The notes under the pieces were generated by a model. The model was not told where the DNA came from, searched no databases, and worked only from the letters and a program-made list of their open reading frames with translations. The position numbers and the translations under genes are program-made. From Octopus vulgaris (taxonomy: Eukaryota): a DNA stretch of 64,000 nucleotides. The stretch lies in NCBI GenBank assembly GCA_951406725.2, contig OX597815.1:162192001-162256000 (forward strand), in the 5' to 3' direction. Below, piece by piece: positions 1,215 to 62,576 of this stretch (its first letter is position 1; each line of letters starts with the position of its first letter).

Positions 1215-2191
1215 ATGGGCCCAAGACCTCGCATGACCTTGGAGAGACGGCACAAGGCTCTCTCGTGGCGTGGGAAGCTGTCGGAGGTTGCAATAGCCAG
1301 AAAACTTGGTGTAGCCAGGCGCACAATTCAGTGCTTATTTAAGAAATACGAGGAAACCGGATCAGCAGCTGACAAAAAGGGTAGGGGACGGAAGAGGCTG
1401 ACGACCCAGCGGGAGGACTGGATGCTGATCCGAAAGTCACTGTACAACCGAAGGGTAACGAGCCGGCAACTGGCGGAGGAGATGCAAAAGATGACAGGGA
1501 AGCAGTTGTCTACAACCACCGTCAAGACCAGATTACTGGAAGCTGGTCTAAAATCCTGTAGGGCCACCCGTAAGCCGCTCCTTACAGCCCAAAACCAGAA
1601 GAGGCGGCTGCTCTGGGCCCGTGCCCACAAGACATGGACCGTGCAGCAGTGGCGGACAGTGATGTTCACTTACGAGTCGCGATTCAGTCTCATCAGTGAC
1701 AAGCCTGTCCATGTGCGACGCCGCAGGGGTGACCGCTTCAACAAAGACTGCATTGCTCCCACCATGAAGCAAGGTGGGGGTGGTCTGATGGTGTGAGGGG
1801 CGTTCAGCTACAGTGGTGTTGGGCGGCTCTATGCCTTCGAAGTACGTTGAGATAGTACGGGATACCTCTTTGGTGGCGAGGAGTACTGCTCCAGCAGGAC
1901 AACGCGCCTTCCCACACAGCCAAGCTCACAACCGGTTTCTTCAAGGACCATGGGGTGACGGTCATGGACTGGCCTGGCCAGTCACCTGACCTGAACCCTA
2001 TTGAGAACCTCTGGAGTCGATTGGGTAGGGATTTGAATGTGCAACAATACAGGAACCGACACGAACTGTTTGGGGCACTTCTTGCTGCATGGGGGGCCAT
2101 CCCTGCACAGTACCTGCAGGCGCTCATAGACAGCATGCCGACCCACATAGCAGCTCTCATTGCTGCCAAAGGAGGAGCAACAAGATATTGA
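1215..2191 (+). pseudogene. Tc1 transposase pseudogene
   Basis: Paired-like HTH N-terminus, GRGRKR AT-hook-like motif, KPLLT..RLLWARAH, VMFTYESRF (first catalytic D appears as Y). TGA at 1794-1796 where W of GGGLMVWG is expected, a second stop and a deletion/frameshift, then QQDNAPSH...WPGQSPDLNPIENLW with exactly 34 residues between D and E. Confidence 0.95.
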
Positions 2192-3100: not shown

Positions 3101-3774
3101 TTTATGTGTGAGTGTCTGTGTATGTACACACACACGCACTCATAAAGCTTGACATGTATATAAAAATATATATCGTTGCTATTATTTTAAACTGTCGTAT
3201 GTCCAAATTTGGTCAAATGCGTTTTTGTCAATATTTATTTGTGCTTGAAATAGCCATTTCTTTTGGTCAAACTATCGTATCTCCCGTTGCTTCAGATGCC
3301 AAAATATCGAAAATTGTCAAAGTGTAGTACAACAGTTTTGCTATGGAATGGTGAAACTATTTGATCGTTTTCTGAAAAAGCAACGTTTTGGACTTAAGAC
3401 ATTTTTGCATAATAGCAACGATATATTATATATTTATTCATATACACATACGTCAGGTTTCTTTCAGTTTCTGTCTACCAAAGCCACTGACATGGCTTTG
3501 CTCGGCCTCTTGGCGTGGAATTATAATAAAAGATACTTGACTTATTCCATAAGCAGCTTCCCAGAAATATTTAAACTCTCGTTATTTTATAAGTGAACTG
3601 TCAAACTCAATGCTTCTGGCATCTTCAGTATTTCCCGAAAAAAAAAAAGAAAGAAAAAAGAATACACACTTAAAAATCTGCATATTTTTGATTTCTTTAA
3701 GTCATATACATGATCCGGATTCCATTGTACAAAATTTCCGGAACTTTGGGAAGCAAGCTTTTTACCACACAAGA

Positions 3775-3928
3775 GTGTCTGTGCGATAAGAAGCTTGCTT
3801 CCCAACCACATGGTTTCAGGTTCAGTCCCACTGTGTGTCACTTTGGACAAGCGTCTTCTACAATAACTTCAGGCTGACCAAAACCTTCTGAGTGGATTTC
3901 GTAGGTGTAAACTGAAAGAAACCCGTTT
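3775..3928 (+). mobile_element. SINE family A, 5' part
   Basis: tRNA-like head (GGTTCAGTCCC B box) and core ...AAACTGAAAGAAACCCG matching the full copies. Confidence 0.8.
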
Positions 3929-6126: not shown

Positions 6127-6912
6127 AAGGTGGCGAGCTGGCAGAAACGTTAGCATGCCGGGCGAAATGCATTGCGGTATTTCGTCTGCAGTTACGCTCT
6201 GAGTTCAAATCCCGCCGAGGTCGACTTTGCCTTTCATCCTTTCGGGGTCGATAAATAAAGTACCAGTTACGCAATGGGGTCGATATAATCGACTTAATCC
6301 GTTTGTCTGTCCTTGTTTGTCCCCTCTATGTTTAGCCCCTTGTGGGTAATAAAGAAACAGGTATTTCGTCTGCGGTTACGCTCTGAGTTCAAATCCCGCC
6401 GAGGTCGACTTTGCCTTTCATCCTTTCGGGGCCGATAAATAAAGTGCCAGTAACGCAATGGGGTCGATATAATCGACTTAATCCGTTTGTCTGTCCTTGT
6501 TTGTCCCCTCTATGTTTAGTCCCTTGTGGGTAATAAAGAAACAAGTATTTCGTCTGCGGTTACGCTCTGAGTTCAAATCCCGCCGAGGTCGACTTTGCCT
6601 TTCATCCTTTCGGGGTCGTTAAATAAAATACCAGTTACGCACTGGGGTTGATATAATCGACTTAATCCGTTTGTCTGTCCTTGTTTGTCCCGTCTATGTT
6701 TAGCCCCTTGTGGGCAATAAAGAAACAGGTATTTCGTCTGCGGTTACGCACTGAGTTCAAATCCCGCCGAGGTCGACTTTGCCTTTCATCCTTTCGGGGT
6801 CGATAAATAAAATACCAGTTACGCACTGGGGTTGATATAATCGACTTAATCCGTTTGTCTGTCCTTGTTTGTCCCGTCTATGTTTAGCCCCTTGTGGGCA
6901 ATAAAGAAATAG
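6127..6912 (+). repeat. SINE family B with four tandem 184-bp body units
   Basis: One head, then units starting GTATTTCGTCTG at 6177, 6361, 6545 and 6729. TSD GGTATG(T/A)TAGAGGTGAT at 6110-6126 and 6912-6928. Confidence 0.92.
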
Positions 6913-7350
6913 GTATGATAGAGGTGATGGTAAGATGGGAATAATGGCAACGGTGGTGGTGGTGGTAGTGATGGTGATGGCGATGGAGGCCGCGGTTGGG
7001 ACGATGGGAGGGAGAAGCGGTGTGGGGGATCAGGGAGTGAACTGGGGGTGTTGAACGGACAACAACTAATGTAAATGCTAGATGACAAAAGAGTAAATAA
7101 TTGAGGGGAAAAAAATAAAATAAAGGGGTTTAAAAAGTAGGTCAAACGTAGGGGTACCAGAAGCAAATCTTCAAAGCAAAACTCACTATCCACAATATAC
7201 ATGAATGGAAAAATTTCTTAAGAAATAACGTTTGTTATTATTCGTGAGTGGCTGCTGATCTCTGTTTCGGTGAGGGAGGGAATAAGAGAAGGAGTACTTT
7301 GTGTATGTAGTGTGTGTGTAGACATATACATATGTAGACATATACATATG

Positions 7351-10807: not shown

Positions 10808-12563
10808 AACTGGATGCCCTTTCTAATGCCAGCCACTCTGCGAGTATACTGGGTGCTTTTTACGTGCCACCGGCATGGGAGCCAGGTCAGGTGGCACTGG
10901 CATCGGCCACATTCAGATGGTGCTTTTTTCGTGCCACCAGCATGGGGTGCCAGTCACACGTGAATTGTGCTTATTGTTACAATTTCCATTTTGATTTCGA
11001 TTTCATTGAGATTCTGATTGTGATTTTGATAGGTCTTCTCAAGTGCAGCGTGTTGCCCAACAATTCAAAAGTACTTTTTACATGGGCTGGTTATGCAACA
11101 CTGTGATCTCACTTTACTAGGCTACAGCTGTGATCTCACTTTACTTGCCGGGTTTTCTCAATCACTGCATATCTTCAAAGGTCTCGGTCTCTTGTCAAAT
11201 TACCCTGTGAGGCACAACGTTTGAAGGCCATGGTTCACTACCTCATCCCATGTCTTCCTGGGTCCCCCTCTTCCACAGGTTCCTTCTACTGTTAGAGAGT
11301 GACACTTCTTCACACAGCTCTTCTCATCTATACGCAGCACATGACCATACCAGTGCAGTCGTCTCTCTTGCAGACCACATCTGATGCTTCTTACATCCAA
11401 CATTTCTCTCAGGGCTCTTACACTCTGTTGTATGTACACACTGATATTATACATCCAGTGGATCATACTAGCTTATTTCTTTCAAGCCTATGTATGTTCT
11501 CAACAGTCATGGCCCATGTTTCACTGCCGCGTAGCATGGCTGTTCACACACAGACATCATACAGTCTACTTTTCAGCCTGAGTGAGTGGCCCATGTCACC
11601 AGCAGAGGTGGGGGCTTTCTGAACTTTGCCCAGGCTATTCTTATTCTAGTGGCAACACTCTCAGAGCATCCACCCCCACTACAAACTTGGTCACCTAGGT
11701 AGCAGAAGCTATCAACTACTTCTAGTTTCTTCCCCTGGCATGTGATGGAATCTGTTTTCTAAACATCTTCAGTGTTTATTGCCCCTGTGCATCTGCTGCA
11801 CACAAACTATCATCCCGGTTAACCTTCCTTTGATGTTGCTACACTTCTTATGCGTCCATAGCTTACACTGGGTACATCTAATGGAGTTTCTACCTGCACC
11901 TTTTCTACAGATTGAGCAGGACCATCTACCTGAAGGAGTTTGTGATTTGTTCACTTTCCTACTTACTAGGACTTTGGTTTTTTTTCTTCATTGACTCTAA
12001 GGCCCTTTGATTCTAGAGCTTACTTCTGCACCTGAACTTTCTTATCTGGTTCTGGTAGTGATTCAGGTATGAGAGCAAGGTTGTTAGCATAGAGGAGCTC
12101 CCAGGGGCATCCTGTTTTGAATTCCTCTGTTATTGCCTGGAGGACTATGATAAATAGGAAGGGGCTGAGGACTGAACCTTGGTGGACCCCTGCATCTAGC
12201 AGGAATTCTTCATTGTACTCTTTGCCAACTCTCACCTTACTGACAACGTCCCTGTACATAGCTTGCACAGCTCTCACTAACTATTCATTTATCCCTAGTT
12301 CCCTCATTGACCACCAGATAAGGGATTGAGGGACCCTGTCAAAGGCTTTCTCCATGTCAATGAAAGCCAGGTACAGAGGTTTATCATTGGCTAGGTATTT
12401 CTCCTGCAGCTGTCTTACCAGAAATATAGCATCAGTGGTGCTTTTCCCTGGCACGAACCCAAACTGCGTCTCATCTAAACTGACTCTTTCCCTAATTAGT
12501 TGGGCTATGATCCTCTCCGTGACCTTCATTACCTGATCCAACAACTTGATACCTCTGTAATTA
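10808..12563 (-). mobile_element. 5'-truncated RTE-clade LINE (decayed RT and 3' UTR)
   Basis: NYRGIKLL..QFGFVPGKST.DAIF..RQLQEK..AFIDMEKAFDRVP, GVHQGSVLSPFLF, ELLYANN (decayed YADD), then RRLHWYGHVLR..GRGGPRKTW. Frameshifts and stops throughout. Confidence 0.93.
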
Positions 12564-12584
12564 TGTACATATATATATATATAT

Positions 12585-12768
12585 ACGTAAAAAGCACCCA
12601 CTACACTCGCGGAGTGGTTGGCGTTAGGAAGGGCATCCAGCTGTAGAAACATTGCCAGATAAGACCAGAGCCTGGTGCAGCCTTCTGGCTTCCCAGATCC
12701 CTGGTCGAACCGTCCAACCCATGCTAGCATAGAGAATGGACGTTAAACGATGATGATGATGATGATGA
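12585..12768 (+). mobile_element. RTE LINE 3' tail
   Basis: CGTAAAAAGCACCCACTACAC...CCAACCCATGCTAGCAT...(GAT)n. Similar tails: 18127-18309(+), 24330-24430(-), 25030-25335(-), 54440-54612(+), 57345-57560(-), 58850-59231(+), 63520-63667(+). Confidence 0.88.
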
Positions 12769-14724: not shown

Positions 14725-16228
14725 AATTAGTGGACAAGATATGTCAAAGGTAAGCAGAGTTAGTGGTTGTAGTAACCGTCTAAGGGATAATAGCATCGAT
14801 ATTTACTATCGGTATCAATTACCTACACTATTCCTGGGCATGGGTATGCAGGCACACTTTGCTCATAGGGTACAGGTAACAACAGAATAAACAAAAGTTT
14901 ATCAGAAATCAAATTTAAATAATTAGAAAATGGAGAAAATTTTTGATAAACAAACTAACAAATTGAACCACTTCAGTTGATTGTTTTTTAATACAAAACA
15001 TGACATAATATTTTTATGGCCGTTTCTGCTTCAAATGTTAGTTTATGGTTATGAGAGAAATTCCGAAAATAATATTCGTCATTTTCATATCCCATTTGAT
15101 CTAGTACATGGAGCATCATCAGAGTAAATACAAATTTACTGGTTTGTTTTCTTCTTTATTTACATATACCCCTGTAACGGTCTTAACTTTTGCCCTTGAT
15201 TCAAATATAATAGACCAATAGATAAATTTTGGTCAATTCCATTGTGGAAAACAGGTGGTGCTCTATATTTCAGATATTATATTATAAGTGTATTATATTA
15301 TACAGAGTGGCTGTTTGGTAAGTAGCTTGCTAACCAACCACATGGTTCCGGGTTCAGTCCCACTGCGTGGCATCTTGGGCACGTGTCTTCTGCTATAGCC
15401 CCGGGCCGACCAATGCCTTGTGAGTGGATTTGGTAGACGGAAACTGAAAGAAGCCTGTCGTATATATGTATATATATATAAGTGTGTGTGAATATGTTTG
15501 TGTGTCTGTGTTTGTTCCCCTAGCATTGCTTGACAACCGATGCTGGTGTGTTTACGTCCCCGTAACTTAGCGGTTCGGCAAAAGAGACCGATAGAATAAG
15601 TACTGAACTTACAAAGAATAAGTCCCGGGGTCGATTTGCTCGACTAAAGGCGGTGCTCCAGCATGGCCGCAGTCAAATGACTGAAACAAGTAAAAAGAGA
15701 AAAAGAAAAAGAGTATATTATATGTGTCTTGCATTAAGTTAGGCTGATGATATTATAAGAACTCTACAGTTTTGTTTTGGTATAAATATTAATTAGCCCT
15801 GTTTATGATATCATAAGTACTATTCTTTTTCTAGATATATTGATAATTCTTGTCTTATTTTAGCTTCATTTCGCTACTATTCAAACACCCTGGTTCCCCT
15901 TTATATAGAAATAACCCATAAAAATATTTCTCTAGATCACTGCTAGTTCACTCTATTGTCTATCAACTTCAAGCTCCACGCTGCAAGATGGAATGAGTTT
16001 AATATATTGAGCCTTCTGGCTTCTTCTCAAGGCCCTGTTCTTTCCAATTCCCTCTTCACTTTGCTTATTTTATTTTACACATTTTTATTCACTCTGTGCT
16101 ATGAAGATGATGAATAATATTTTCAGAATTTTGTAAGCACCAACTAACACTGGAAGCAGAAATGGCTGTAAGAAATGTTATGCCATGTTTTGTATTAAAA
16201 AAAATAATCAACCTATGTGGTTCAATTT

Positions 16229-16604
16229 ACATTATTTACATTCAACAGATATTTGTCCTCATCTTGTTTGTTGTTAATACAATATTTCGGCTGATATACC
16301 CTCCAGCCTTCTTCAGGTGTCTTGGGGAAATTTCGAAACTGGGTTCTCATTCCTAAGATATTTTTCCATGTTATTATTATTATTATTGTTCAGGTCACTG
16401 CTTGGAATTGAACTCAGAATCTTGGAGTTGGTAGCCTGCACTCTTAACCACTATGCCATATGCCCAGGTTCGAAATTTCCTCAAGACACCTGAAGAAGGC
16501 TGGAGGGTATATCAGCCGAAACGTGTAAACAACAAACAAGATGAGGACAAATATCCGTCGAATGTAAATAATGTGCATAATCCCTCATCTCTTAAATTTA
16601 GAAC
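16229..16604. mobile_element. Inverted pair of tRNA-headed hammerhead-containing element (locus 1)
   Basis: Minus copy 16229-16465 with tRNA-like head; plus copy 16463-16604 is 5'-truncated and tailed. TSD TGTGG(T/C)TCAATTT at 16216-16228 and 16605-16617. Confidence 0.85.
16485..16528 (+). ncRNA. Minimal type I hammerhead ribozyme motif (probably decayed copy)
   Basis: GACAC-CTGAAGA-A-GGCTG[GAGGGTATAT]CAGCC-GAAA-CGT. Mirror copy at 16278-16321(-). Copies at about 25682-25721(-) and 25995-26042(+) have GAAA changed to AAAA. Confidence 0.7.
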
Positions 16605-16684
16605 TGTGGCTCAATTTGTTTGTTTATCGATCAAAAGTTTTCTCCATTTTCTGATTATTTAAATTTTGTATATATATATATATA

Positions 16685-20961: not shown

Positions 20962-21371
20962 GGCACATGGCCTAGTGGTTAGAGCAGCGGACTCGCGGTC
21001 GAATCTCAGACCGGGCGATGTGTGTGTTTATGAGCAAAAACACTTAAGCTCCATGCAGCTCCGGCAGAAGGTAATGGCGAACTTCTGCTGACTCTTTCGC
21101 CACAACTATTTGTTTGAATGAAACCATCCTTGAGCCATGCCTGGCTCATAAGGGCCGGTTTCTTGCCGTATAGGTTCTCCACCTGGACGGGATGCCGGTC
21201 CTTTGCAGGTGAGCTGCAAGATGCAGGAGGAAAGAGTGAGAGAATCACTCTTTCCTCCTGCATCTTGCAGCTCACCTGCAAAGGACCGGCATCCCGTCCA
21301 GGTGGAGAACCTATACGGCAAGAAACCGGCCCTTATGAGCCAGGCATGGCTCAAGAAGGAACAAACAAAAC
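20962..21371 (+). mobile_element. tRNA-derived SINE (family C head) with an internal inverted duplication
   Basis: Head GGCACATGGCCTAGTGGTTAGAGCAGCGGACTCG, (AAC)-like tail, TSD AATTATTGTG(T/C)GAGTGGA at 20944-20961 and 21372-21389. Perfect palindrome about 21129-21355. Confidence 0.85.
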
Positions 21372-23494: not shown

Positions 23495-25599
23495 TAATTG
23501 CTTATTTATAATCTACACAATTTGAAGTAAAATTTAGGAAGTTATTTGCAATAAACCATAAATTATAAACTACCTTGACATAAAATCATTAAAGTCAGAC
23601 AGAAAGATAGGCTGGACACTCAATAATTAATTGAAGTTGACTGCTATAGTATCAGCCAAGTGCTAATATGCATTGAATTTTTCTGGTTGTGTGCCTATGT
23701 TACAGGTTATTATTACAAGGGTGAACGTGGGCAAGCTGGCAGAATTGTTAGCATGTTGGCCAAAATGCTTAAGGCATTTCTTCTGGCTTTACATTCTGAA
23801 TTCAAATTCTGGTGAGGTCAACTTTGCCTTTCATCCTTTAGGGTCAATAAAATAAGAACCAGTTGAGTACTAGACTGGGTAAGGAGATCAACGTAATTAA
23901 CTGATTCCTTCTCTTCCTACCTCTTTAATACTTCAGGACTTGAGCCTGTTGTGGAAAGAATTACTAGAAGGGTGAGTGATAGTTTGGGAATTAACTCATA
24001 GAACATGGAATAAAATAGTTTGTGACACTGAGATTTGTTCCTTTTAAGTTTCTCTCATCACATCAAATTTGTCTGTCATCCGTTCAGTGTCAATAAAATA
24101 AATCAAATTATTGGATACAAAATTACTCTACTCATAAAGTTTGTAGTTGTATGTCTGTTAGAAAACATTATTATTGTTTTTCATCCTTTCAGGGTCAATG
24201 AAATAAGAAACCGTGGAGCACTGGTGTTGCTGTAATTGACTAATTCACTACCCCACCTAAAATTTAAGCCTTGTGCCTGTACTGGAAAGGATTATTGCTA
24301 TTACCAGTAAAGGTATTTCAGCATTCAAATCATCATCATCGTTTAATGTCCACTTTCCATGCTAGCATGGGTTGGATGATTTGACTGAGGACTGGTGAAC
24401 CAGATGGCCGCACCAGGCTCCAATCTGATCAAATGTTTATTTTTTGTTGGACAAAATATGTATATGTGTATACATATTCTCTCTCTCTCTCACACACACA
24501 CCGCACAAACGCACATGCATAAATATATATACACACATATATATATTCTGTGTATGTATCTCTTTTAGTCATTTGACTCCGGCCATGACGAAGCACCACC
24601 TTTAGTCAAGCAAATCGATCCTGGGACTTATTCTTTGTAAGCCTAGTACTTATTCTATTGATCTCTTTTGCTGGACCACTAAGTTACGGGGATGTAAACA
24701 CACCAGTATCAGTTGCCAAGCGATGTTGGGGGGGACAAACACAGGCACACACACATATATATATACATATACATATATATGACAGGCTTCTTTCAGTTTC
24801 CGTCTACAAAATCCATTCACAATGCTTTGGTTGGCCTGAGGCTATATAGTAGGAGACACTTGCCCAAGATTCCATGCAGTGGGACTGAACCCGGAACCAT
24901 GTGGCTGGTAAGTAAGCTACTTACCACACAGCCACTCCTGCGCCTATTATATATTATGTTTATATATAAAGAGGATGTTCAGGTGAAGGAAAAGAAAGCA
25001 CAATATCCTGTCCCAAAATATAAGTATTATATCATCATCATCATCACTGTTTAACATCTGTCTTCCATGCTGGCATGGGTTGAACAGTTTGACAGTAGCC
25101 AGACAGGTAGAAGACTACATCAGGCTTCTGTGCCTGTTTTAGCATGGTTTTTATGGCTAGATGCCCTTCTTAACACCAATCACTCTGCAGACAGGACTGA
25201 GTAGTTTTTATGTTGCACCAGCACAAGTGAAACCAATTTTGGTATGGTTTTTATAGCTGTATGCCCTTCCAAATGCCAACCACTTCGCAGTGTGGACTGA
25301 ATGCTTTTTGCATGTCACCAGCACTGGCTGGGTTACTAAGTAACTCTACTATAGCCTCGGGCTGACCAAAGCCTTGTGAGGGGATTTGGTAGACAGAAAC
25401 TGAAGGAAGCCCGTCATGTATATATACGTGTGTGTCTTTGTGTCTGTGATTGTCCCCCACCATTGCTTGAAAATCGATGGTGTGTTTACAACCCCATAAC
25501 TTAACGGTTCAGTAAAAGAGATCAATAGAATAAGTGCTAGGTTTACAAAGAATAAGTCCTGGGGTCGATTTCTTGAACTAAAAAATCATTTAAGGTGGT

Positions 25600-26089
25600 A
25601 CAGTTCTATATTTAAGAGATGAGGAATTATGTACATTATTTACATTAGACGATATTTATCCTCATCTTGTTTGTTGTTAACACATTTTGGCTGATATACC
25701 CTCCAGCCTTCATCAGGTGTCTTGGGAAAATTTCGAACTTGTGTTTGCATTCCTAAGGTATTTTTTGATGTTATTATTATCATTATCATTGTTCAGGTCA
25801 CTGCTTGTAATCGAACTCAGAATCTTGGGGTTAGTAGCCTGCGCTCTTAACCACTATGCCATATGCCCGTGGTATAATGGCGTAGTGGTTAAGAGTGCGG
25901 GCTACTAACCCCAAGATTCAGAGCAGTGACCAGAACAATAATAATAACACCAAAAAAACCTTGGGAATGCAAACCCAAGTTCGAAATTTTCCCAAGACAC
26001 CTGAAGAAGGCTGGAGAGTATATCAGCCAAAAGGTTGTGTTAACAGCAAACAAGATGAGGACAAATATCCGTTGAATGTAAATAATATA
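25600..26089. mobile_element. Inverted pair of tRNA-headed hammerhead-containing element (locus 2), nested in a family A SINE
   Basis: Minus copy 25600-25868 is complete and tailed; plus copy about 25870-26089 is untailed. TSD CATTTAAGGTGGT at 25587-25599 and 26090-26102. The host SINE resumes after the TSD. Confidence 0.9.
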
Positions 26090-26299
26090 CATTTAAGGTG
26101 GTGTCGAGCATGGCCACAGTCAAATGACTGAAACAAGTAAAGGAGTAAAAGAATATGCAAAAATTATGGCTGTGTGGTAAGTAGCTTGCTTACTAACCAC
26201 ATAGTTTTGGGTTCAGTCCCACTGTGTGGCACCATGGGCAAGTGTAGTTGAGGAGAAGTTAGATGACACGGATGACATTAAAGTTGTAGTTGAGAGAAG

Positions 26300-27899: not shown

Positions 27900-28400
27900 A
27901 AGATGCCATCAAAATTATAACCAATCAAAAATTAGATCCTTTCACGTAATAACATAGGTGTTTGCATATGGGTATTTTCCTGGTTATGGGATCCCGGATT
28001 TGTTGCTTGTGTACTGTTAGTCTGCCCCTCAAGGTTAAGCCAGTCATGGTGGTTGAAGAGTTTGTAACACTTGTAGCCTCTGGATAAGTGTTTCTTAATT
28101 AACAACAGGAAGTCCCTAGCTACATTGGTGGAAATTTCTAGGTTGAAAGTGGAGTTATACCATATAATTTTCCTTTTTCTAGGTCCTTTTGGGAAGTTTG
28201 TAATACTTGTAGCCTCTGGATAAGTGTTTCTTAATTAACAACAGGAAGTCCCTAGCTACATTGGTGGAAATTTCTAGGTTGAAAGTGGGGTTATACCATA
28301 TAATTTTCCTTTTTCTAGGTCCTTTTGGGAGTGAGGAGAGGGTGTTTGGGGATTGTCCTCGTATGTGAGCTTCTCAGTAAACCCACTCCTTGTCAAAGCA
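27900..28400 (-). mobile_element. Penelope-like element pol fragment with a 136-bp tandem duplication
   Basis: Minus strand reads RKRKIIWYNPTFNLEISTNVARDFLLLIKKHLSRGYKYYKL(FN), the PLE RT-to-GIY-YIG linker motif. Units 28059-28194 and 28195-28330. Confidence 0.75.
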
Positions 28401-31407: not shown

Positions 31408-33092
31408 TGGTATATCATTTGTTAGTTGAATTATTGTCTTTGTGTGTAACACACGTGTTTTTTTACTGTTTTAGCGGTGCGATGTTTACCCTCTTGTTTA
31501 ATGGAAGGGGCGTCATGCGATGAGTTGTGAAGATTTGAATTATTCTTCTTCAGACTTTGTGTCATCTGAGAAAGAAATGGTAAAATGTTTAAAGAAAACT
31601 AATGAAGTAATGGAAACAAGGAATTATGCTGCAGCAACAAAAGGGAAAATGGAAGACATATGTCTAAAAGAATTGAGCAAGTTCAAGGAAATACTCAAAA
31701 AGGAGGGGAATGATGTGAAAGTGTCCCCCCCTCCAAAGAAGTGTTAAAGGATAAGAATGAGAGGACAATTGTTTACAGGACATACGCAGTGGTAACAAGA
31801 AAAATAGAAGTAGTGTCAGACGCACATGTTGAAAAGGCACTGAGACCAGTCTGGCAAGAGATTTCATACCTTGCCAAGGGAAGAAAGTACAGAATGGTGG
31901 AGGTGCAGTTTCGAGATATAGCTACTGCCAAATTGCACTCAGCTACACCATTAAAAACTGAAGAAGTGGTGCTTCTACCCATATATCTTGGAAGACATGC
32001 TTCCAGGGTTAGGGTAGAAGAAATACTCCCAGAAGTGAATGTAGCCTGGTTGGTGGCTGCTATACTGCCAGGCATGGAAGAAAAGGCCACCAGAACACCC
32101 TGCAGAAACTGGCAAGGGCAGAATCTGGATATGGTGGTACAGGTTGCACCAGATGATATTGAAAGTATGGTGGAGACAATTACAGTTACAGACATGACAC
32201 TGAAAGTCAAAGTGGAAGGGAGGATTCTGTGGTGCTATAAATGTGGCCTGAAAGGCCACATTAGTGTGGATTGTCCTCCACCACCTGTGAAGGCTAAGGA
32301 AAGGCAAGAGAGTGAGAAAGTGGTTGGTGCTCCACTGCTCATGGAGGATGAAGAAAAGCACAAGAAGGAGAGTGAAGCAACATCACAGACAAAGACCAGT
32401 ACCTGAATCAAGTAAGAGGAGGTGAACACTAGCTGGGAAACGGAGGGAAAAGAGAGAAGGAAAGGACACTTGTGGTAAAGGACGATCCCCCAACTCACAC
32501 CCACCTGGCTCCCGCCCGCACCCATTCTACCTCAACCACTCCCTACAGACACCAACCCTCCCCATACCCTGCCAGACATAAACACAAGTGTAAACACACA
32601 GGAGCCCCAAATTTCCCCACCTTGGCCCTTGGATAAATTTGTTATATTGTATAATAGGAAAAAAGAACTTTACAATGAGATAAAGACATGGGACAAAGTA
32701 ATAGAAGTGGGTGTAATAAGGGTAGTGGGGTTGCCTGGGGACGTTTGGTGTGCAGTGGCGGACCCGGAATAATGATTAACGAATTACGAGGAAGATGTCA
32801 ACTTTGCCTGGTGGGTCAAGAAAATGGACATCATTGCAATGCCAAAAAAGGTTATTATAAATTTATATAGCCATTTTTCAAAAAAAAAAATGAGAATTTG
32901 CCGTTACAAATGGTACTGTTAATGTTATTTTAAAAAAAGTTGTATTAATAGGTTTAATGAAGTCGCTCGGAGGTGGGGTCAAATGGCTTCATTTCATCTT
33001 TCATTATATTTAAATTCATCCTTTCCATTCGTTTTTTTTTGTTTTTTGTCCCCTTTATGTATGGCCTTCATGGCCAACTTCATAAAATAAAG
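31408..33092 (+). mobile_element. ORF1-only non-LTR element (L1/Tx1-like, HAL1-type) inserted in a family A SINE head
   Basis: TSD AAGCTTGCTTC at 31397-31407 and 33093-33103. SINE head lies to the left and the rest of the SINE at 33104-33455. 3' end has a TGGCC..GGCCA hairpin and AATAAA. No RT visible. Confidence 0.75.
31520..32772 (+). pseudogene. Gag-like ORF1p with CCHC zinc knuckle, frameshifted
   Basis: 31520-31747 (..RNYAAATKG..) frameshifts into 31741-32406, which has CYKCGLKGHISVDC. A broken Pro-rich extension (PQLTPTWLPPAPILPQ...KFVILYNRKKELY) follows. Confidence 0.8.
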
Positions 33093-56067: not shown

Positions 56068-56105
56068 AGGATTTAATGTTTCGAGCGGAGCTCTTCATCA
56101 GAAAC
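56068..56105 (-). ncRNA. Minimal type I hammerhead ribozyme motif in a PLE-type repeat (55938-56180)
   Basis: Minus strand GTTT-CTGATGA-A-GAGC[TCC]GCTC-GAAA-CATT-AAAT. Confidence 0.7.
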
Positions 56106-59800: not shown

Positions 59801-62576
59801 GATAGTAAGTTGTTACCAATCCACACTGTTGTTTTAGCATGTTCACCTCTAAAAATACTTAGCTTTCTCAAGTCATGAAAAATAATCAGCTTTAGAAAAC
59901 TACCCAACCCATGTTGTGAAATACTGAAATATGAATATTAATTAGTATATTGGTAATAGCACTATCTAAGCTGTCGAGAAAAGTAATAGCTTAAACGAAT
60001 TATGAGTTCTTGTTCTTTTTTGTGTAATGCAATAGAAGCAAAGCAGCAAGAGACACTTCTACATTTATGTGAAGCATGGGATAGCTTCTTGGCAGTCTGA
60101 CTCATAGGAAGCAGTAAAGCAATTCTGGCATACCATTAAATTCGGGAAGGCAATTAGGGCTTTTGTATTTTGGGGGTTTCATATATTAACCCTTTAGCAT
60201 CAGATTATTATGTCAAACGTAATATTTATTTATTCACATTGTTTTGAATTAATCATGCATTATCTTGTAGCTTGAAGATTTCAATGATGTAATTGTTTAT
60301 TTTTAGAAAGACTGGATCTGGTTGTTTTGAACATAAAACATGTAGAATATGTTGCCAGATATGGCCAGTTCAAATGCTAAAGGGTTAGAATATATAACTA
60401 ACGAATTGGCTTGTTAACATCTCTCGTGACTTTATTTGTTTTTCTTGGTATTAGCAAATATTAAACCAGGATCAGAGGCACTTTAATTTAAGTGATAAAG
60501 ATGGTTTTTAAAATTAGGAAAAAAGTTTGTAATGCGAAAAGCAACTACTTAAAGTGGAAAAGTAATTCATTTTGAGCTGTTAGATAATGTGACAGCCTTG
60601 TCTGCAAGGAACAGTTGACATTTGTATGATGAGCTAAGAAAATCATGACTGGTGTGACAACAAAACATTGGACTGGTAAATGTCCTTATCTTGCTTGTTG
60701 CTGACTAACAAAGGTGGTAGACCCTGAATGCTGAGTCAAAGCATACCTCCTGTAGCTTATGGCAAGTTAATTAGTGTATAGCATTCTAGATTTGATAATT
60801 ACATTGTCATTTTAAGTAAATGTGAAATAGCTATGTACCAGAGAAGTTTCCCAACTATTCAAGTTTCATAGTTGTATTTCCTGTCTGTGTGTGTGAGTGT
60901 TTGTGTGTTTGTACCTTGTACAAGTTTTTAGGTGTTCTAACACTTATGAATTTGGAATTTTCATATACTAGTTAAAATCAGCGAAACTAGTGTTCTTTAA
61001 CTCAGTTCAAACATATTACTTCAAAAATTGTTGCAAATTATGAATTTTATCTTGTTCAAAATTAATTTTGATGAAATTGAAATTTTAAAACTAGTTATTT
61101 TACTGACTAAAGCAGTGTTTTTTTCAGATTGTCATAAAGATTTGCTATTGAATTCCATTTAATAAATCCTAAATCATTAGAAATGACATTTTCTGTTTTT
61201 TTTTTTTTGTTTTTTTCCTTTTTACTTGTTTCAGTTTGTGCACTGTGACCATGCTAGAGTGCTACCTTGAAGGGTTTAGTCAAACAAATTGACCCTAGTA
61301 CTTGTTTTTTAAAAGCTTGGTACTTACCCTATCAGTCTCTTTTGCCAAACTGCTAAGTTACAGTTAGGTCACCAATGCTGGTTGTAAATCAGTGGTGGGT
61401 GACAAATGCATACATAAATTTAACAATAGGCTTCTTTCGGTTTCCGTCTGCCAAATCCACTATTAATGTTTTGGTCAGCCCTGAGCTATAGTAGAAGACA
61501 CTTACTCAACATACTGCACAGTCACTGAGCCCAAGACCATTGTGAAGTAAGCTTCTAAACCACTCTGCCTATGTCATGTTAATATAACGTGAAAGAAAAA
61601 CAGCTTCGGCTTAATGTGTTGTGGTTAAATTTCAGTTTAGGATTGAACTCTTGTGGTAAGTGTTTGGAAATGGATGAAACCATTTGGATACATGAGTAAT
61701 AATAATGTTCTTCAACCTTAATAACTTAGTCCACTGTTTTTGTTTTGAAATGATTAGGACTCTTTTGGGAACAGTTTGTATTGTATTTTCCTACATACAA
61801 GTTGACATAGTATATAATGTAAACATTCAAACATTGTCACTGTCTTTTTGAATCCTGCTGCAATCTATATGGATGTGTAAGTCAACCTACCATTTTTGAC
61901 TGTTAATTTTGGTTTGGAAAGTTCTACTCGAATGCTTGAAAATCAGTGATTTAAAAAAAAAAAAAAGAAGTCGTTGAAGATATCCAAGATACTTATGTTA
62001 ATGTTTTCAGGATGATATTTCAAATAAATAAAGTTTGGGGAAAATTAAGTATTTGGAATGATTTGAATAAAATAACTTTATTTGTACAACAATTTGTTGT
62101 TAGAACTAGAGATGGCTCCTCTAACATTAATTTATGATGAAATATTTGCTTGTAGTAAAAGTGAACCCTTTAGCACTCAGCTCATTCTGTTAAATGTATT
62201 GTTTATTTATTCACATTGTTTTGAATTAATCATGCATTGACTCATAAGCACCAGGATTTCAGTGATATGATTGTTTATTTTTAGAATGTCATTGTAGGGT
62301 AGGTGTGAGAGGCTAGATCTATCTGATTTAAACAAAGAACAGTAAAAATAGTTGGGCCCAGATATGGCTTGTTTAAATTGCTGAAAGGTTAATTACAATC
62401 ACTTTTTATCTAGAACAGCTTGATAGCATGGGTCTGGTAGTGCCCCCACCCTCTCTCTCACATTTTCATTTAAATGGTTAACCTTTTGAACAAAAATATC
62501 TGAAATCCATTTTGCAAGGTGTTCACATTTAATTGAAATCTTATTTTCTTATCTAACATGGGCTTTTAGATTAACA

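Follow-up and report, generated by a model that had tools for sequence, protein, structure and literature searches.

A short tRNA-headed octopus element with a hammerhead-like motif, inserted as a one-tailed inverted pair and probably moved by a borrowed Penelope-like enzyme

The inverted pair at positions 16216-16617 (locus 1) of the window (by which we mean the whole stretch of Octopus vulgaris DNA that was analysed, 64 kb long) is an insertion of a high-copy, non-coding, tRNA-headed element, likely made with the borrowed RT-endonuclease of a Penelope-like element (PLE) and with cDNA started from each side of a staggered cut. The inverted plan, with one tailed and one untailed arm, is not the novelty, since it has already been published as a Penelope-like footprint; what may be new is the tRNA-headed cargo. 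In its workings the element is akin to a non-autonomous PLE, and in its appearance to a SINE. The PLE enzyme, transcription by Pol III and the order in which the arms were joined are parts of this reading that we infer.

Locus 1 is composed of the following features, given by position in the window:

16216-16228, plus strand: left copy of the target-site duplication (TSD), 13 bp, which recurs once in the empty paralogue
16229-16465, minus strand: full-length untailed arm of 237 nt, with tRNA-like head, AAT linker and hammerhead-like motif, stopping short of the tail
16276-16321, minus strand: minimal type I hammerhead motif of the untailed arm (core at 16310-16316), with a mismatch in stem I
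16371-16387, minus strand: (AAT)n linker at the head/body boundary of the untailed arm
16404-16415, minus strand: B-box-like motif in the head of the untailed arm (motif search)
16448-16458, minus strand: A-box-like motif in the head of the untailed arm (motif search)
16463-16465, no strand: CCC microhomology common to the 5' ends of both arms
16463-16606, plus strand: tailed arm, 5'-truncated, 144 nt
16485-16526, plus strand: minimal hammerhead motif of the tailed arm (core at 16490-16496), lacking 3 nt that include the cleavage triplet
16538-16593, plus strand: predicted stem-loop of the tailed arm, formed between the tail and upstream sequence (folding)
16575-16606, plus strand: tail of 32 nt (33-34 with the shared bases), in the tailed arm alone
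16605-16617, plus strand: right TSD copy, with one mismatch, its first 2-3 bases common to the tail end

A preliminary description of this DNA had proposed that an untailed minus copy is joined through CCC to a tailed plus copy, and this layout stands, except that the plus arm ends at 16606-16607 and not at 16604. The two arms are 91% identical over 115 nt and overlap in the CCC, which, by the majority letters of the family, belongs to both of them; 122 nt of head are present in one arm only. The untailed arm terminates at ..GTAAATAATGT, a point that maps onto the inner hairpin of the predicted stem-loop. The flanking 13-mers (16216-16228 and 16605-16617) do differ by one mismatch, as had been described, with the qualification that these 13 bp count bases shared with the element ends (2-3 at the tail, 1-4 at the untailed end) and come to about 10 or fewer without them. 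Since the two arms point their 3' ends outward, right up against the duplicated bases, each of the two target ends likely served as a primer and was extended.

A 13-mer repeated with at most one mismatch was found in 6 of 17,740 random pairs drawn from the window at the spacing of locus 1, and an exact repeat in none (the control being 20,000 draws less those in simple repeats, with a spacing slack of 2 bases). In addition, comparison of the window with itself revealed a continuous stretch that both flanks match, with 80% and 89% identity:

14911-15089, minus strand: empty paralogue of the repeat that hosts locus 1, with the target 12-mer in single copy at 14960-14971

The two flank matches overlap in precisely the duplicated bases, and this single copy in the empty paralogue identifies the 13-bp repeat of locus 1 as a true TSD. 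The expectation that empty sites should hold one copy of the TSD was thus borne out by proxy, in a stretch that spans the insertion point with one 13-mer and is paralogous, not orthologous, to the occupied site. A short TSD together with a single-copy empty site (here paralogous) is also what a PLE insertion unit displays. The host itself is an AT-rich low-copy repeat, present at 14911-15089 and 16095-16670 in opposite orientation about 1 kb apart, one copy of which carries locus 1.

The window contains a further inverted pair (locus 2), which lies within another SINE:

25587-26102, no strand: locus 2, mirror image of locus 1
25599-25868, minus strand: full tailed arm
25869-26092, plus strand: untailed arm
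25587 and 26090: copies of the exact 13-bp TSD

Both arms of locus 2 are headed and the host is the 3' part of another SINE; the host repeat and the central junction differ between the two loci, as the preliminary description had it for flanks and junction. Each of the 11 paralogues of this host SINE that were examined (11/11) contains one best match to the target, with 3-6 mismatches and at the corresponding place. Beyond the four arms of loci 1 and 2, a sensitive search of the 64-kb window returned no further copy of the element, with the exception of one weak 60-nt match at 60665-60726. At both loci (2/2) the tail is at one end and is 32-34 nt long, within the 30-40 bp of PLE tails.

Over the 110 nt that the four arms share, 3 of 5 informative columns sort the arms by locus and 2 of 5 by tail status. 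The arms of locus 2 have in common five letters that are in the minority in the family (the rarest at 3-5%), which indicates that they come from one source lineage. This kinship is compatible with one RNA copied twice, with two RNAs from one master and with later conversion between the arms. Internal T4 runs are absent from the arms of locus 1, and there is one in the arms of locus 2: a TTTT run occurs in both of these arms (25727-25730 and about 25987) and is missing in locus 1 and in the family majority. This run could stop Pol III ahead of the ribozyme, and the source was perhaps read through or made by Pol II.

At the predicted cut site of the ribozyme (16522-16523; 25684), the same 3 nt are missing from the two tailed arms and retained in the two untailed ones. 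The idea that this loss is a scar of the RT crossing a cleaved RNA was dropped, given that the codon is kept in 5 of 6 readable tailed peptides of octopus type (present in P0001, P0013, P0036, P0041 and P0061, absent in P0018); P0024 seemingly lacks it although untailed, and GT repeats such as the one at the cut site slip easily, which also counts against a scar. A second letter linked to tail status (25648) was likewise rejected as a tail signal, being accounted for by the decay of one CpG.

The complete element measures about 270 nt. It begins with a head that carries A and B boxes; an AAT linker leads on to a hammerhead-like motif, which is followed by a stem-loop and the 32-34-nt tail. A and B motifs were both found in two of the three heads, the third having its B box deleted; these calls use motif definitions that we take to be the accepted ones. 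The tRNA-like head and the hammerhead, both claimed in the preliminary description, are supported to this extent: the head by its A- and B-box motifs and the hammerhead by a motif scan and folding. Neither is called by the dedicated tools, ARAGORN finding 0 tRNA genes at the element and Rfam no tRNA or hammerhead match (sub-threshold hairpin and microsatellite matches being all that it returned). The fold of the stem-loop is modestly stable, with z = -1.75 at locus 1 and -2.18 at locus 2.

The description had also stated that both hammerhead cores keep CTGAAGA. This core turned out to be a family minority, the majority being CTGATGA (84% in run X1 and 96% in run X22); the damage to the ribozyme is real, and it is unlike between the arms of locus 1, since the plus arm is without the 3 nt holding the cleavage triplet and the minus arm keeps the palindromic cleavage triplet and has a mismatched stem I. 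The majority letters, in turn, spell a minimal hammerhead of type I that is intact: its core is the canonical CTGATGA, an unpaired A comes next, helix II measures 6 bp and helix I 5 bp, and the cleavage segment is palindromic. According to Cervera and de la Pena (PMC4209133), the minimal hammerheads of PLEs are marked by a short helix I and a longer helix II, by a base left unpaired after A9, by a G10.1-C11.1 pair and by a palindromic 15.2-16.2, all of which the majority sequence shows. Judged by its letters, the family thus carries, upstream of its tail and in the place known from PLEs, a putative minimal hammerhead of type I.

In order to view the family beyond the window, four public runs (X1, X3, X14 and X22, out of 24 listed, with the small-share X18-X20 left out) were placed on the monomer of locus 2. 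Three of them, with three organism codes, gave 35,900, 20,030 and 24,651 matching contigs, and X22, a single cDNA library from a related organism that constitutes our RNA data, gave 8,975 element reads among 12.9 million raw reads. The family is therefore, as SINEs are, very abundant, short, non-coding and interspersed, with hundreds of unrelated flanks. In X22, starts or ends of reads form no pile and reads are equally frequent on both strands. Two of the translated copies bear Octopus bimaculoides names, so that the family is present in that genus; in one peptide (P0011), a piece of the element begins the O. bimaculoides gene model of dystrobrevin beta, by exonisation or annotation error.

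The tail end is fixed at 25599/25601 in all four runs, next to unrelated flanks (agreement 0.40-0.48), with 402+140 contigs in X1, 465+179 in X3, 415 in X14 and 1125+405 reads in X22. The proposed fixation of the untailed end was upheld by proxy: three points (the two loci of the window and a pile of X22 reads at 25633) fall within about 5 nt of each other, and a sister family, described below, gives the same picture. The pile is made of 329 RNA reads that exit into a single flank, probably one well-expressed host locus. A further 782 reads of X22 are clipped at 25651, with long loose ends and, among the top loose ends listed, a consensus that fades near the untailed point. Across this point the depth in X22 falls from 3963 to 3027, from which we estimate that roughly a quarter of the 3' ends may be untailed in this library; with a tail loss of a quarter, many copies are probably tailed monomers.

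Head-to-head pairs recur with variable truncation. Among the best 15 of 145 joints, seven join the head to a copy on the opposite strand, and in these seven the partner copy is truncated at 25631, 25647, 25682, 25723, 25725, 25736 or 25761. A partial head-to-tail tandem was also observed in X1 (a joint from 25644 back to 25601); loci 1 and 2 contain no tandem.

Additional evidence on pair geometry comes from a profile search with the longest open frame of the arms, which returned 186 matches, the best 150 of which were examined. We regard 3 of these as long repetitive proteins and the others as genes called in error where copies of the element lie. Most of the matches listed represent a sister family on ENA contigs that can be aligned with ours between ribozyme and tail, at 41% identity over 44 residues, and whose counts, being derived from peptides, carry a gene-calling bias and perhaps describe one genome. 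We distinguished 117 sister units in 105 proteins: 62 tailed, 43 untailed, 4 ending too soon and 8 set aside (out of 51 apparently untailed ones) because A-run frameshifts may mimic untailed ends, the threshold for this being loose. Of the 43 untailed units, 38 depart from the consensus at the point homologous to the untailed end, within a span of three codons, and none exits in mid-tail (columns 14-16); the sequence downstream is unrelated from copy to copy. Given that the profile stops near this point, earlier ends are under-sampled and later ends are not.

Inverted pairs are spanned by 15 of the best 150 of the 186 proteins, and both outer ends are visible in 13. Judged by eye, ten of these 13 pairs are clearly one-tailed, one is probably so and two are ambiguous, with no pair clearly two-tailed or tailless; the excess of one-tailed pairs has P = 0.03 when the three unclear pairs are counted against it and 0.0006 for 10/10. 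In three sister pairs the same four residues stand on either side, which corresponds to a duplicated stretch at least about 12 nt long. A motif leading from the tail to a next unit was observed in 16 of the best 150 of the 186 proteins (P0066 probably being spurious). Among P0002-P0150, 126-nt head-to-tail units beginning at the ribozyme are frequent, and some peptides hint at a tRNA-like head.

This geometry closely follows that of known PLEs. In Craig 2021 (PMC8557442) the PLE footprint comprises an inverted, 5'-truncated neighbour and a 30-40-bp tail at one end, and the same plan is found in PMC8969392; in rotifers, PLE units have TSDs of 8-10 bp, and capture in trans by the pLTR alone has been described (Arkhipova 2013, PMC3846280). 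The octopus element resembles the EN+ PLE units (Penelope/Poseidon, Neptune, Nematis) in its head-to-head inverted 5'-truncated partner, one-end tail, short TSD (13 bp, versus 8-10 in the rotifer cases of PMC3846280), minimal hammerhead upstream of the tail and partial tandems. It differs from them in being about 270 nt long without an RT or GIY-YIG ORF, and in having a tRNA-like A/B-box head in place of the coding body.

A short non-coding body with a PLE-like 3' end, together with the presumed use of PLE enzymes in trans, is shared with the non-autonomous PLE derivatives of Chlamydomonas (MRC1 and kin, PMC8557442), the animal non-LTR retrozymes (PMC7229834; bioRxiv 10.64898/2026.07.22.740005) and the short non-autonomous Penelope elements of Heliconius. 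The tRNA head sets the octopus element apart from retrozymes and PLE derivatives, none being reported in the accessible text of PMC7229834 or of the 2026 preprint. Retrozymes, additionally, form tandem arrays, a non-LTR retrozyme being defined by at least two consecutive tandem hammerhead units (bioRxiv 10.64898/2026.07.22.740005), whereas loci 1 and 2 are dispersed inverted pairs; assignment to that class was consequently rejected. In schistosomes, hammerhead pairs on opposite strands occur 100-700 bp apart (PMC4209133), and Sm-alpha and Sj-alpha (PMC2770079, PMC6765202) offer a precedent for a short, high-copy element with a tRNA-derived Pol III module and a hammerhead. These differ in that their promoter is at the 3' end of the cleaved unit, and that they depend on tandem copies, and no PLE tail, inverted pair or PLE partner is described for them in the available portions of PMC2770079 and PMC6765202, the comparison being made by description.

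With the tRNA-derived SINEs of octopus the element shares its tRNA-derived head, its high copy number and the animal group. It is a variant of a SINE and not a classical one, because its 3' end is a hammerhead and a fixed tail, with no A-rich or repeat terminus. Such octopus SINEs were reportedly treated by Ohshima and Okada in 1994. Of the octopus SINEs OK, OR1 and OR2, OR1 appears as a CORE-SINE in the list of PMC4824008. The annotation supplement of O. vulgaris (PMC13282606) makes no mention of a hammerhead; in PMC13282606, 893 of 900 recently active SINE families are unclassified.

For the mechanism, we propose that Pol III would transcribe the element from its A and B boxes, and that a PLE protein would bind the 3' stem-loop in trans and nick both strands about 13 nt apart, creating two 3' ends. 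One of these would prime at the tail terminus; for the other, a second start would lie about 30 nt further upstream, and 1-4 bases of pairing would assist at either place. The two cDNAs, one of them often incomplete, would then anneal by their ends (CCC/GGG) and be repaired into a head-to-head pair with one tail. The preliminary description had attributed the dimer to two cDNAs primed from the two ends of a staggered cut: two-sided priming does fit both the geometry and the behaviour of PLEs in vitro, and the step with two cDNAs is one that we infer. The purified PLE protein of the anole cleaves and extends both strands (Frangieh 2024, PMC11167929), starting at two RNA sites that flank the tail, and is predicted to be a dimer. 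Both start sites are used alike on both strands in vitro (PMC11167929), a pattern that alone does not yield the single tail of each pair, and both PMC8557442 and PMC11167929 treat the origin of one-tailed inverted PLE units as unsolved.

The second arm of the same PLE-driven element could also be explained by self-priming or fold-back, with either the first cDNA or an antisense template as the substrate, an explanation that we regard as unlikely. Self-priming has been suggested for palindromic PLE junctions (PMC3846280), and copying of one arm from the other would give the five minority letters common to the arms of locus 2. Nevertheless, it fits locus 1 poorly because the head is on one arm only: the junction is not palindromic, and those 122 nt could not have come from the truncated tailed arm by fold-back copying. 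The fixed stop of the untailed arm, predicted by a second start site, and the in vitro extension of both strands (PMC11167929) argue in the same direction. Dependence on a LINE, with inversion by ordinary twin priming and with the ribozyme and the tail as passengers, is in our opinion quite improbable. Twin priming inverts the 5' part of one RNA and leaves the 3' end unduplicated, whereas both arms have the same 3' 110 nt; moreover, the 3' end lacks poly(A) or short repeats, and an optional 32-34-nt tail with a minimal hammerhead is a PLE trait. What speaks for a LINE is that tRNA-headed SINEs normally borrow LINE enzymes (PMC4824008), that the window contains LINE fragments and that our searches found no PLE partner.

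We give very little credence to the pair being itself mobile (as a fold-back or MITE-like DNA element) or to two monomers having become adjacent by chance: the arms are inverted and the TSD encloses the entire unit, as a mobile pair would have it, but arm lengths and junctions vary between the two loci and among the seven joints, the ends are unequal, with the tail on one side, and a single TSD around both arms is unexpected from two separate events. Finally, it is highly improbable that the head-body join is a chimera confined to one place, made of a SINE and part of a PLE, and not the mark of a family. The read depth of X22 does dip in the linker (about 1250-1400, when the head has about 2000 and the body 3400-3900), yet the same join is present in three arms at two loci, the depth is unbroken in all four runs, and among the contigs listed, four divergent ones from three runs (records 7, 8, 16 and 24) span the boundary between body and head, and two of these reach it from the ribozyme; at the level of the runs examined, the chimera is refuted.

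Returning to a PLE-driven insertion, an autonomous PLE with the same 3' end was not found by profile and homologue searches or among the ORFs of the window, and no RT or GIY-YIG ORF in the 64 kb is tied to the element. Among the further partner searches, one returned the query alone and another 2 matches from 107 candidates, in both of which we see the element inserted in other sequence; metagenome contigs, pattern-scanned twice, gave 0 loci. The sole RT-bearing match is P0155, which we take to be a LINE-type RT interrupted by the element. Among open-access papers, we found none that links a tRNA-headed SINE to a PLE partner. Tentatively, and with somewhat more doubt than belief, we suggest an undescribed class of SINEs, tRNA-headed and Pol III-driven, which would parasitise PLEs and not LINEs, would have multiplied to very high copy number in octopuses and, thanks to a length of only 270 nt, would keep their insertion products whole. 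By a strict rule, these products would pair one tailed with one untailed arm from one source, a dimeric PLE enzyme copying one RNA twice from its two start sites, one per nick. The family may, of course, be catalogued already under a plain SINE or Penelope label.

A PLE-driven tRNA-headed family would widen the rule that, in the literature consulted, the recorded partners of SINEs are LINEs, and SINEs of this kind may explain part of the large unclassified SINE share in octopus genomes. Additionally, with thousands of short, complete insertions, the asymmetry of the tail, the stagger of the cut, the microhomology at the junction and the kinship of the arms become directly countable, and the element is a 270-nt substrate for the existing PLE assay in vitro.

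The window holds several other features. A coding-like fragment at 27935-28330 (minus strand) includes a 136-bp tandem duplication (98.5%), and its peptide 27935-28234 (minus strand), which we presume to resemble Penelope-type ORFs, matched nothing in Pfam, homologue and atlas searches. Likely LINE remnants are an RVT_1 fragment at 12281-12742 (minus strand) and a zinc-knuckle ORF at 31714-32406 (plus strand), and a split transposase of the Tc1/mariner type (HTH_Tnp_Tc3_2, DDE_3) lies at 1215-2191 (plus strand). At 56068-56101 (minus strand), a different repeat, unrelated to the octopus SINE, has a hammerhead-like motif with a CTGATGA core, a short stem and GAAAC. A 184-bp SINE-like unit with a B-box-like motif forms a tandem array at 6132-6916, its copies being 95-96% identical, and a perfect 50-bp inverted repeat with a loop of 5 nt is found at 21190-21294.
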